A stretch of DNA of 20,960 bases from a virus (lineage: Duplodnaviria; Heunggongvirae; Uroviricota; Caudoviricetes), in the IMG/VR virus record IMGVR_UViG_3300049216_000317, positions 1-20,960 of that record. The stretch is one strand, 5' to 3'. A program made the position numbers and the translations under genes. A model generated the notes under the pieces. That model was not told where the DNA came from, ran no database searches, and worked only from the letters and a program-made list of their open reading frames with translations. Below are positions 14,893 through 20,960 of this stretch, one piece after another (the first letter of the stretch is position 1; each line of letters starts with the position of its first letter).

Positions 14893-17037
14893 TTACCCAG
14901 CGCTCTGAGTGATTTGTGAAATGTTGAAGTTGATCGGGATGAAGTAAACAGCCGTTGCAAGCTTCACTTCCACGCTCACGCTCATAGTCGGAGCCTGGAT
15001 GTCGACTTTCGCATTTTTGAATCCGAGCGGAGCATCTGAAGACGCACCGATAAGTTTCTGTTTGCGGTAAGCGTCCATTTTTTGTCCCAAGAAACTCAAC
15101 GCGATTGCTGCATTCACATCTGCCAAAGACTTTCCGACGAAAGCTTGTTGGAATGATTGAGCAAGGTCGATTTCAAGGATGTCCGAGCAGTACACGGCCT
15201 GCATCGAGTTGTAGACGAAGTTCGTATCCAAACCGTAAGTAGTTTGGTCAGAAACCCAAGTCACACCTGCATTCAGAGATTGCAAGATCAGCATTCCGCC
15301 ATCCAATGCATCTTCGACGTCGCCGGGCGAACCTGAATCGAATCCAACTGGATCAATAACGCTTGAAACGTTTGCGATCTTATTGGTGATTGACTGATAG
15401 AATCCGCCAGCCTGCATACCAGCTGCGACAACAGCTGCATACCAAGGCTGGAACGTAGTAACTACGCCAGCAGAGTTAAGCTGTTGAGTGCTTTGGAAGG
15501 TGAAGCTGATTCGGAAATCTGCCAATGCCTGTGCTCGCGCCTTAGCATTGTCGTAAGTATCCAGGTTCGAAAGAACCGCAATACGATTACGTTTCAGCTT
15601 AGGAGTCGAGTATTGCAAACAGTGGTTTTTAACTGCCAAGTTGATCGCATCAATCGTGTAAGTCGAAGAAGAATCAGTAACACCAGCTGCGATGTCTTTT
15701 GATGCATCTTGCGAAAACAAAGGGACCAAGATATTGCACTGAATACCAGCCAGTTGCGCAATTGCGGCTACGACATCAGCTGCCAAGGTTCCACCGCGCA
15801 AACCACCTGCGAGGTAGGTAGCTGCTTGGACGTTTGGAAGTCCAGCGGTTGCTTGAGGAGTGAATGTCAAAACAGTCGAGTTGCCAACGGCACCTGCGAA
15901 TGAAGAAGCTGCATCTTTGATACGTCCCGGTTGTCCTGTTGCCGAAGCGATACCGATTGCAGAAACAGAATCCAGAACTGAAGGGGCAGATTGCTGAGCC
16001 TGAGCAATAACAGAAGCCGAATAACCAGTTTGGCTGTTAATGTAAGCGGCGAGATCTGCGACAGTTGAGTAAGCCGAAAGTTTGAGCGAAAGGTTTGCGC
16101 CAGATCCGCCAGTAACAGTCGTAGTTAAGGTGCCAGCCGCTTGGTTGATCGTGAGAGTTCCGGTCGTACCATTGTAACCAACGGTCATAGCGATTTCCGC
16201 TTGCACATCGATAGTTTCGTTTACGCCAGTATCTGCGCGCACGATTGAAACTTCGACTTCTGGTTCTTCTGAAGAAACAGTAAGTCCTGCGCTCAATCCA
16301 AGTGCGGCGAGGTCACCGGAAGTAGAATCGATCAGTTCAAACGATTTTCCATAACCAATGTGGTTTGCGTTTGCGTCAGCCGCCATCGTCAAAACGATAG
16401 TTCCCGTAACAGTTCCAGCTGAGGCCGCAATTCCCGAAGGAAGAAGACTGTTCAGTTCAGTTGCTAGGGTGGCCGCGCTTGAATGGTTAGCGGAAACGCT
16501 GCCAAGAGTAACGACGCTCGCGACACCACCATTTAAACGGATGCTGAATGAGCAACCGTTAAGAGGTGCGCCAAAGGCAGGAATTGCAGTACCAGTGATG
16601 GTCGGTGCAACTTCTGACTGGAGTTGAGTAATCGTGAACTTATATTTATTGCCCGGAAGGCCGTAGTTCTTATCTTGGAACTTACCATAGTTGGTATCGA
16701 CCAATGCCGAAGCTTGCGTTCCAGTGTTCGTTTTCACGATATACACCGTATTCGCAGTAGCTTGGATCGCCGGATCAGCAGATGGAGCAGCCAAAGCTGA
16801 CATTGCATCCACGATCGGGCCGCTAATATAAGCCTGAGCAACGTTCGATAGTTGATCGGGTGTGAATGAGTTATTTTTAAGGACTACGCTTTGATAGCTC
16901 GGTCCGCCATCGGCTTCACCAATGATGACGATAACGCCAGAAGCGCCAGCACCAACAGGCAAGCTGATAACGTTAGGCTTAACGTATGCCCCAGGAATCG
17001 GCGTTGTGACGAAATCTGTGGTTAAAAGTTGTGACAT
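14893..17037 (-). CDS. contractile tail sheath protein
   Basis: 714 aa; N-terminal PGAYV, LAGG mid-motif, C-terminal ...VEVKLATAVYFIPINFNI; precedes the tube gene. Confidence 0.92.
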   Translation of the reverse strand: MSQLLTTDFVTTPIPGAYVKPNVISLPVGAGASGVIVIIGEADGGPSYQSVVLKNNSFTPDQLSNVAQAYISGPIVDAMSALAAPSADPAIQATANTVYIVKTNTGTQASALVDTNYGKFQDKNYGLPGNKYKFTITQLQSEVAPTITGTAIPAFGAPLNGCSFSIRLNGGVASVVTLGSVSANHSSAATLATELNSLLPSGIAASAGTVTGTIVLTMAADANANHIGYGKSFELIDSTSGDLAALGLSAGLTVSSEEPEVEVSIVRADTGVNETIDVQAEIAMTVGYNGTTGTLTINQAAGTLTTTVTGGSGANLSLKLSAYSTVADLAAYINSQTGYSASVIAQAQQSAPSVLDSVSAIGIASATGQPGRIKDAASSFAGAVGNSTVLTFTPQATAGLPNVQAATYLAGGLRGGTLAADVVAAIAQLAGIQCNILVPLFSQDASKDIAAGVTDSSSTYTIDAINLAVKNHCLQYSTPKLKRNRIAVLSNLDTYDNAKARAQALADFRISFTFQSTQQLNSAGVVTTFQPWYAAVVAAGMQAGGFYQSITNKIANVSSVIDPVGFDSGSPGDVEDALDGGMLILQSLNAGVTWVSDQTTYGLDTNFVYNSMQAVYCSDILEIDLAQSFQQAFVGKSLADVNAAIALSFLGQKMDAYRKQKLIGASSDAPLGFKNAKVDIQAPTMSVSVEVKLATAVYFIPINFNISQITQSAG

Positions 17038-19600: not shown

Positions 19601-20401
19601 TCATTCCCACTTCGTCCAAGACTCGATGTTCTTCAAAGCCTCTGGCAGGACCTGAGATTCCCAAATCGCCATGGCATGTTCTTTCGCGCGCTCAAAGAAG
19701 TTCTTGGCCTGAAGTCCAGGGTGAATCCATTTGCCTTGGCTTTTAGGTCCTGAAGTGACGGTGCGGAAGGTTTTTACCGAAAGGGTTCCGGTGCGCTGCC
19801 CTTTTTTGTTTTGGCCCGTTACGCGCTGAAAGGCGTTTACGTTTTGGCCGATTGGCGTGTTGCCACGCCCAGGGATTGGACCACCAAGATCTAGATCTTT
19901 GATGGTGCGGCCATGTTTTAGGTTTCCTGCGCCGTCAGTTGTTTTACCGAAAAGACTTGCGCCTTTACCAAACTTCTCTTTATAGCCCTTTTGAAGCTGT
20001 TCGCGCATGTTACTCATATTGACTGTACGATCCTGTGCTGGACCATTGTGTTCGAAGGGGATGATTCGATACCGAATGCCATTTTTCCCGACCTTGCCGT
20101 TTTTTAAAAGTCCCGGCTTCATGTCGAAATTTTCTGGCAAACCATCTTCAATAAAAATTGCCGATTGCTCTAAGGTGCAAACGAATACGCCGGGCGCGAT
20201 TTCTTTAAATGGAGTTAAAGCCTGCAAATAGGTATTACGAGTTGAGTGAAGTTCGTTTTGAACCATTTCAAGAAGGAAGGTGTAAGTTTGGTTCGCGAGA
20301 TTTCGAGCCGCTTCGTTAAGTTCTTGCTCAACCTCTTGCCGAAACAAATGAAAAGTCTCGGCAATTTCGTCCGTATTTAGTGAAAAATGAACGTTTGGCA
20401 T
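19601..20401 (-). CDS. putative neck / head-tail protein (HK97 gp10-like neighbourhood)
   Basis: FDMKPGLL, RYRIIPF, FRTVTS and WIHPG..AKNFF motifs recall neck-region proteins of large myoviruses. Confidence 0.65.
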   Translation of the reverse strand: MPNVHFSLNTDEIAETFHLFRQEVEQELNEAARNLANQTYTFLLEMVQNELHSTRNTYLQALTPFKEIAPGVFVCTLEQSAIFIEDGLPENFDMKPGLLKNGKVGKNGIRYRIIPFEHNGPAQDRTVNMSNMREQLQKGYKEKFGKGASLFGKTTDGAGNLKHGRTIKDLDLGGPIPGRGNTPIGQNVNAFQRVTGQNKKGQRTGTLSVKTFRTVTSGPKSQGKWIHPGLQAKNFFERAKEHAMAIWESQVLPEALKNIESWTKWE

Positions 20402-20402
20402 A

Positions 20403-20612
20403 TTACCCTTTCGAAGGGTTAACAGGCACTCCGGAATCGCCCATCACTCGCGGCTTTTTCATATCGATGAAGCGGACTTTACCCTGTGCATCGGTAACCT
20501 TTTGTTGGCCTTTGCCATTAATGCCACCGTCCGGGATCACAGTCCGCGCGATATGTTTGGTCGTATGTTTCGCGGACAACTTGCCTACGCCTTGGCCGAT
20601 TGTCCCTTGGGC
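20403..20612 (-). CDS. -1 frame extension (69 aa) of the upstream gene; no own start
   Basis: Open frame AQGTIGQGVGKLSAKH...VRFIDMKKPRVMGDSGVPVNPSKG* ends 1 nt before the next ATG; no ATG until residue 51. Confidence 0.65.
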   Translation of the reverse strand, partial: AQGTIGQGVGKLSAKHTTKHIARTVIPDGGINGKGQQKVTDAQGKVRFIDMKKPRVMGDSGVPVNPSKG

Positions 20613-20636
20613 TTTGGGGGCGGGGCACCGCCCTCT
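20574..20636 (-). other. candidate programmed -1 ribosomal frameshift signal
   Basis: In-frame slippery heptamer C_CCA_AAG (20618-20612); AGAGGG 12 nt upstream; GGACAA/TTGTCC stem starting 6 nt downstream. Confidence 0.65.
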
Positions 20637-20960
20637 TTTGCTGGAGCAGCCGACTGCTCTTGTGGAACTTGTTTTTCAGGCGCTTGCGCTTCGTCAGGAC
20701 CATTTTCTTGAGTTGGAACTTCGTCATCACCACTGAAACCCAACATTTTGGCCATTTCAATCATTGAACGCAGCATGGCAATTGACGCCTGATAAAATTC
20801 AGGAGCCTGTTCTTTTGCCATTTCGAGGACCTTCTTCTGGGATTTGAATCCTTGAAGAGCTTGTCCTACCATTTGCGAGACTTTTTCTTTTTGAATATTT
20901 TGAGCGTGGTTATCTAATCCGTCTTTTAGAACAGAACCTAGGTCTGGACCTTCGTCATCT
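20585..20960 (-). CDS. hypothetical protein, 5' end outside the window
   Basis: The frame stays open upstream of ATG 20872 to the window edge (DDEGPDLGSVLKDGLDNHAQNIQKEKVSQ-MVGQ...). Confidence 0.8.
   Translation of the reverse strand, partial: DDEGPDLGSVLKDGLDNHAQNIQKEKVSQMVGQALQGFKSQKKVLEMAKEQAPEFYQASIAMLRSMIEMAKMLGFSGDDEVPTQENGPDEAQAPEKQVPQEQSAAPAKEGGAPPPKPKGQSAKA

Follow-up and report, generated by a model that had tools for sequence, protein, structure and literature searches.

The locus examined here raises the question of whether a late gene of a large, uncultured phage yields a single protein, or whether a fraction of its ribosomes changes reading frame near the 3' end and appends a second C-terminus. 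The window, that is, the whole stretch of DNA analysed (20,960 nucleotides), is the first part (1-20960) of an IMG/VR virus record that is 164,531 bp long and carries direct terminal repeats. A first-pass annotation had described a -1 frameshift cassette at this place, comprising a zero frame with a slippery heptamer, an upstream AGAGGG, a downstream stem, a -1 frame of 69 residues whose TAA lies 1 nt before the next ATG, and a gap of 183 nt that would remain between the zero-frame stop and the next gene without the shift, and all of these elements held base for base. The comparative evidence presented below makes it very likely that a programmed -1 ribosomal frameshift of the dnaX/IS911 type adds a C-terminal extension to the product of this gene, and no read, RNA, peptide or reporter data stand behind this reading.

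The mCpol gene and its probable frameshift cassette

Read on the whole record, the short product of the gene comprises 454 codons (49 kDa, pI 4.1) and begins with an mCpol domain, continues with a long acidic stretch that contains CxxC pairs, and then has a helical hairpin. The mCpol match (PF18182) spans residues 4-117, approximately the first 115 residues, with an E-value of 9.6e-18 and 65.1 bits against a gathering cut-off of 26.4, and it includes GGDE-type motifs, so the earlier description of the product as an uncharacterised protein held only in part. The mCpol domain bears on the roles of the isoforms and not on the mechanism of frameshifting. The protein resembles Panoptes OptS/mCpol (PF18182) in its N-terminal 115 residues; Panoptes is a bacterial defence locus in which an mCpol lies beside a membrane effector gated by nucleotides, whereas the present gene lies in a phage late structural operon, and its product carries about 340 extra residues and a putatively recoded C-terminus. 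It is possible that an mCpol protein made by the phage from its late operon could feed or spoof host nucleotide signalling. The mCpol domain is followed by a strongly acidic stretch of about 200 residues that includes two CEYC motifs (contig ~20960-21949; L001:1789-3153, minus strand).

The major head protein and several unknown genes are located upstream of the mCpol gene, while the phrog_16819 gene is located downstream, followed by a terminator-like protein and then by the tail sheath; by this gene order the mCpol gene belongs to the head-neck section of the late operon and does not occupy a tail-chaperone position. The earlier claim of a location outside the tail-chaperone genes likewise held, the gene being situated between the major head protein and the neck/sheath genes and showing no chaperone homology. 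The upstream neighbour of the mCpol gene (L065:1091-1999, minus strand; contig ~21990-22898) encodes 302 aa, and its counterpart in L002 310 aa; it has a C-terminal CxxC...C.C zinc-ribbon-like segment, shows no family match and adjoins the mCpol gene in every locus inspected. The tail sheath (window 14893-17037, minus strand; 714 aa) belongs to phrog_279, whose profile has only 489 positions, and a weak Flagellin_IN-like stretch at its residues 295-347 (E 0.002) suggests an inserted surface domain.

Table 1. Features around the 3' end of the mCpol gene, in window coordinates.
Feature	Position	Strand	Details
Zero-frame ORF, 3' end	20585..20960	-	TAG stop 20587-20585; start outside the window, at approximately contig base 21949
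SD-like AGAGGG	20636-20631	-	12-nt spacer (20630-20619) to the heptamer; candidate 5' stimulator
Slippery heptamer C_CCA_AAG	20618-20612	-	In phase with the zero frame: CCA 20617-20615, AAG 20614-20612
3' hairpin	20574..20605	-	GGACAAU 20605-20599 with GUUGUCC 20580-20574 (7 bp), plus inner GCC/GGC (3 bp)
-1 frame extension	20403..20612	-	69 codons (20612-20406), plus TAA 20405-20403
Next gene downstream	19601..20401	-	266 aa, phrog_16819, function unknown, conserved neighbour; ATG at 20401

The presence of the cassette, as listed in Table 1, is shown directly by the sequence of the window. The zero frame reads ...KEGGAPPPKPKGQSAKA*, that is, it ends in ...GGAPPPKPKGQSAKA before its TAG, and non-shifting ribosomes would stop 8 codons past the heptamer, and the -1 frame has no stop from 20675 until its TAA ends at 20403. 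At C_CCA_AAG, a -1 slip would let tRNA-Pro exchange CCA for CCC and tRNA-Lys exchange AAG for AAA, and the same heptamer has been reported as highly shift-prone in E. coli (PMC5009743). The predicted long product would measure about 515 aa and 55 kDa with the junction ...GGAPPPK/AQGTIGQGVGK..., and no ATG, GTG or TTG was found ahead of the GKL motif in the extension frame of the window. The anti-SD duplex of AGAGGG was calculated at -10.9 kcal/mol, and the phage's own starts also use SD sequences, 46% of them having duplexes of -6 kcal/mol or below, compared with 6% within ORFs. The hairpin begins 6 nt 3' of the heptamer, encloses the zero-frame stop and has an MFE of -15.6 kcal/mol (z -2.58 against dinucleotide shuffles, 1 of 200 folding equally well), a stability that exceeds 95% of synonymous recodings. 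The cassette of the window stands at the weak end of the family, with an SD core of GAGGG and not GGAGG and with a hairpin of the 7-bp outer-stem type, which has a large loop, and not of the 9-bp type. A search of 20350-20750 against Rfam returned no family.

Conservation of the cassette and of the extension

A scan of viral and metagenome contigs with an alignment of the extension recovered 62 loci with 42 distinct junction sequences, whose frames were assigned by homology (tblastn) to the upstream protein and to the extension, a few contigs being too truncated for a frame class. Fourteen loci need a -1 shift (15 with L039, which was assigned by hand), nine need +1 or -2, and 13 are fused in frame. 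Besides the window, 13 distinct junction sequences need the same -1 shift, and identical -1 junctions recur across separate assemblies (L007/L008/L029, L011/L012/L061 and L019/L020). The closest relative via the downstream neighbour (43% identity) exhibits the same layout, with a zero frame that ends soon after an in-phase GAC_CCA_AAG and a -1 ORF that has no start codon and encodes a homologue of the extension (51% identity). The relatives share ancestry, so the counts given here are not independent events and joint probabilities overstate independence.

The first-pass annotation had proposed an alignment of homologues as a check on the conservation of CCCAAAG and of the frame break. An in-phase X_XXY_YYZ heptamer was present within the frame overlap of all 14 -1-class members (NNC_CCA_AAR in 13 and A_AAA_AAG in one), and six of these overlaps are merely 19-40 nt long. 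The background rate of in-phase X_XXY_YYZ in the rest of these ORFs is 55 per 14,677 codons (0.37%), and a heptamer of the -1 kind was found in none of the nine +1/-2 members. The conservation of the site is thereby shown, and it is a constraint on the heptamer as nucleotides and not as protein, because the cassette-free fused relatives retain Pro-Lys with other codons, spelled CCT AAA, CCC AAA or GCA CCA AAA.

The flanking elements are conserved likewise. The anti-SD duplex has a median of -10.3 kcal/mol in 30 site-bearing sequences against -2.9 kcal/mol in 11,517 background windows (Mann-Whitney p 1e-19), with 0.4% of the background windows matching the family-median strength, and the modal distance from the SD-like element to the heptamer is 12 nt across the family, as in the window. 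The onset of the hairpin falls 5-8 nt 3' of the site in nearly all site-bearing members, and two types of hairpin were observed. The first is a 9-bp stem formed from the codons of Pro-Ile-Gly paired with those of Pro-Ile-Gly, with the compensatory variants CCGAUAGG/CCUAUCGG, CCAAUUGG/CCAAUUGG and CCAGUGGG/CCCAUUGG; the second is the outer stem, the kind found in the window (GGACAAU/GUUGUCC), which covaries in relatives as GGGCAGU/ACUGCCC, GGGAAGU/ACUUCCC and GGGCAAUU/AAUUGCCC. When the extension frame was recoded synonymously, the mean z was -1.7 for site-bearing members (n=29) and +0.6 for site-free fused members (n=7; p 1e-4). A count of pairs at fixed geometry, restricted to the two hairpin models, failed to distinguish relatives with a site from those without (p 0.27) because several members place the hairpin elsewhere; the more general tests, by MFE and by synonymous recoding, did distinguish them. 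The action of the SD-like element and of the hairpin as stimulators of shifting is inferred from sequence alone, without reporter data.

The extension is conserved as protein (47-67% identity across 40 sequences), with a 65-aa module that is retained in all 42 distinct relatives, invariably at the C-terminus of mCpol proteins, and displays the motifs GKLxxKHTTxHxAR, INxKGQxKV and GKxRFID. Its dN/dS among the shift-requiring genomes is about 0.17, a rough value with dS saturated, and purifying selection on the extension is shown. In 13 of the 14 -1-class members no ATG, GTG or TTG precedes GKL in the extension frame, the exception being a TTG at the very start of the open frame. A profile search of 1.84 billion representatives returned 69 hits, 37 of them at E below 1e-10, and about 17 of these 37 strong-hit cluster representatives are proteins of 367-838 aa with the module at the extreme C-terminus, their lengths having been read off the hit table; an N-terminal mCpol domain was detected in 10/10 tested long relatives. 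The junction of one fused member (L023), EGAAPAPK-SKAPVGQPIGKL, reproduces the predicted trans-frame junction.

The extension is basic (7 kDa, pI 10.5) and was predicted by AlphaFold as one beta-hairpin (pLDDT 79). It matched no family in Pfam or PHROG, nothing in 50,697 deposited phage genomes and nothing usable in the ESM Atlas, and its model had no PDB match at E 0.001 or better. Weak profile hits to NHL, beta-propeller and cadherin repeat proteins were judged to reflect Gly-rich beta-hairpin resemblance and not homology. A model of the C-terminal 210 aa of a fused relative (pLDDT 66, pTM 0.28) places a disordered linker between the helical hairpin and the beta-hairpin module and shows no confident contact among these three parts. 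The role of the extension is inferred only; it is possible that it serves as a tethering, binding or targeting module for part of the protein pool, a guess for which there are no binding data. As a separate observation, a linker motif, EWxDPFPxHPDxGG, is conserved in many relatives between the helical hairpin and the shift site (L002:2690-2730; alignment A5, columns ~175-200) and is absent from the protein of the window.

Fused relatives and the +1/-2 class

Fused relatives without a slippery site had been named beforehand as a finding that would refute the cassette. Such relatives exist, yet the claim is not refuted, because the SD-like element and the hairpin are lost there too and other fused relatives keep the whole cassette. 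In seven of the 13 fused relatives all three elements are gone, the heptamer through synonymous changes and with it the SD-like element and the hairpin; the remaining six have kept the cassette, and a slip there would truncate the protein, as in dnaX. Four fused members carry CCCAAAR (L023:2990-3060, L025:2990-3060, L052:1800-1870 and L056:2475-2545), and their -1 frame stops after 1, 1, 2 and 14 codons, while two carry a -2-type site (L003 and L006, near 2985-3060) at which a slip would end after 6 codons. The path that does not lead into the extension invariably ends 1-14 codons from the site. The cassette-keeping fused members probably resemble producers of a truncated isoform of the dnaX type, which is again an inference from sequence alone. 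Such a role reversal has been described for dnaX, with the long form either in the zero frame, where the slip truncates, or needing the slip (PMC5009743), and the mCpol family likewise shows the long form in the zero frame in some members and slip-dependent in others. Since the cassette is missing from seven fused relatives, these phages can do with the long form alone, and a fixed ratio of two isoforms is therefore not universally required.

The +1/-2 class consists of L010:2869-2978, L013:2875-2996, L014:2881-2996, L017:2821-3005, L027:2770-2987, L035, L040, L041 and L055. All nine carry NCC_CCA_CAG (CC_CCA_CAG) in the zero frame, flanked by a GGAGG-like element about 10-12 nt upstream and by a hairpin 6 nt downstream. 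A +1 shift at the stop is disfavoured by the variable codon that precedes it (CAG, CGA, CGG, CAA and CGC). Moving two bases back on CC_CCA_CAG, both tRNAs would keep their first two base pairs (CCA to CCC, CAG to CAC), and the distance to the SD-like element is the one seen in backward shifting; a spacer reduced by 1-2 nt relative to -1 shifting favours -2 shifting (PMC3458567), and phage Mu is a named phage precedent for it (PMC5009743). On account of the variable pre-stop codon, the tandem re-pairing, the SD spacing, the short hairpin spacer and the Mu precedent, the simplest reading is that this class shifts by -2, which appears likely and is inferred without proof.

The spacer to the same 9-bp hairpin measures 8 nt in the cassette-keeping fused members, 7 nt in the -1 members and 6 nt in the +1/-2 members. 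On the gene tree of the downstream neighbour the three frame states are interspersed, with at least 13 changes, and one clade (100/99 support) contains -2, fused and -1 members; recombination between the mCpol gene and the neighbour gene could inflate the count of 13 changes. A bolder reading, which we advance tentatively and judge a little more apt to fail than to hold, is that the family represents a natural allelic series in which one SD-slip-hairpin cassette has three outcomes, namely dnaX-like truncation, -1 extension and a true -2 tandem slip on CC_CCA_CAG, set by single-base changes of the spacer.

Proposed mechanism, rival explanations and meaning

In the proposed mechanism, a ribosome translating the mCpol gene would arrive at C_CCA_AAG holding tRNA-Pro (P site) and tRNA-Lys (A site), the AGAGGG 12 nt behind the site would pair with 16S rRNA, and the hairpin 6 nt ahead would resist unwinding. 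A fraction of the ribosomes would then slip back one base (CCA to CCC, AAG to AAA) and continue in the -1 frame. Ribosomes that do not slip would stop 8 codons on and release the acidic protein of 454 aa, while those that slip would add the basic module of 69 aa, carried on a flexible linker after the helical hairpin, to give the product of about 515 aa. It may be guessed that the extension acts as a tethering or binding module and that the shift would set the proportion of the two forms in which a late and probably virion-associated mCpol protein is made. The slip itself and its efficiency are inferred, and the two isoforms claimed by the first-pass annotation remain an inference that has not been shown; its claim of a dnaX/IS911-type architecture held, with the heptamer, the SD-like element, the stem-loop and the conserved -1 ORF all met.

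The rival that survives best is a corrective shift, in which single-base indels in the rapidly evolving spacer broke the frame, a pre-existing shifty cassette merely rescues enough of the long protein and the short product is a useless by-product; the molecular mechanism would be unchanged and the biological meaning different. It is supported by the hairpin spacers of 8, 7 and 6 nt across the fused, -1 and +1/-2 classes, by the interspersed states on the neighbour-gene tree, by the viability of the long form alone in the seven cassette-free members, and by the fact that 'corrective' frameshifting is a recognised class (PMC5009743). However, four fused members retain the SD-like element, the heptamer and the hairpin, three of them with a -1 stop 1-2 codons past the site, and there is little reason for such retention unless selection favours the truncated form; the uniformly short non-extension path also speaks against this reading, which we consider unlikely.

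An assembly or sequencing indel in the window, for instance in the C5 or G3 run, would mean that the true gene is one open frame. The homopolymer runs at 20616-20625 and 20604-20606 and the existence of fused relatives speak for it. Against it, 13 other distinct sequences, some from independent assemblies, exhibit the same -1 layout with an in-phase heptamer, and the window has both the SD-like element and the hairpin, which are absent from the cassette-free fused relatives. An indel upstream of CCA would leave the heptamer out of phase with the upstream ORF, and an indel in the spacer would yield the dnaX-like state of a fused gene with a cassette, which is still a recoding site; this rival is accordingly rated as very improbable.

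It is equally improbable that the 3' ORF represents a small gene in its own right, with translation starting independently or by termination-reinitiation. In its favour, a TTG at 20579 opens an ORF of 58 codons, and public gene calls often list the module as a protein of 36-153 aa. However, this TTG is the Leu codon of the invariant GKL, and conservation reaches upstream of it to the heptamer; start codons ahead of GKL are lacking in all but one of the -1 members, and the module is fused to the mCpol protein in the 13 in-frame loci and in about 17 of the 37 strong profile hits.

Transcriptional slippage, the addition of a base to the mRNA by RNA polymerase, is suggested by runs of A6-A7 at the site in L005, L018 and L019, but can be all but dismissed. 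The window offers no run beyond C5 and the A3 after it, and CCCAAAG or CCCAAAA is the usual sequence among the relatives, far short of the runs of about 8-9 or more at which efficient slippage is known; the conserved in-phase position, the SD spacing and the spacing of the 3' hairpin are ribosomal features.

The preferred reading, a programmed -1 frameshift, can be set beside three known kinds of system. E. coli dnaX (tau/gamma) and the IS911/IS3-type elements share with the mCpol gene an in-phase heptamer of the X_XXA_AAG type with an SD-like element about 10-14 nt before it and a stem-loop 5-8 nt after it, whereas the mCpol gene encodes a phage late protein, its heptamer is mostly C_CCA_AAR and not A_AAA_AAG, a third state (+1 or -2) uses the same flanking stimulators, and the family is without experimental data. 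Frameshifted C-terminal extensions are known from gene 10A/10B of T7/T3, the major head protein of Lactobacillus phage A2 and the Listeria phages A118, A500 and PSA (PMC5009743); these are alike in the shift near the 3' end of a late-operon gene, in the small extra domain placed on a fraction of the molecules and in that related phages can differ in the direction of the shift (PMC5009743). They differ in that the carrier here is an enzyme-domain protein with mCpol, acidic and helical-hairpin parts and not a capsid or tail protein, and in that the added part is a basic beta-hairpin module of 65 aa without a known fold match and not an Ig-like domain. The tail assembly chaperone G/GT (lambda, and Mu with -2) is alike as a conserved phage recoding site giving two proteins with a common N-terminus, with shifts of -1, -2 or +1 depending on the phage (PMC5009743); unlike G/GT, the mCpol gene does not lie between the tube and tape-measure genes, and its product carries an mCpol domain. 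The mechanism is thus of a known kind, the dnaX/IS911 type, while the gene family and the three-state series (-1, apparently -2, and in frame) are new.

Most annotated phage frameshifts are found in tail-chaperone genes or in genes of capsid and tail proteins, and the mCpol site belongs to a different gene family. Gene callers currently split or truncate the mCpol gene, and annotation should join the long product across 20612. The relatives represent ready controls (fused cassette-free, fused cassette-keeping, -1 and +1/-2), and with this natural series the contributions of SD-like element, spacer length and hairpin can be tested directly. The family also offers a candidate for a new -2 slippery site; if the bolder reading of an allelic series is true, CC_CCA_CAG would be a new bacterial -2 slippery motif, and recoding would set the share of the phage-made mCpol cyclase that carries a basic tethering tail.
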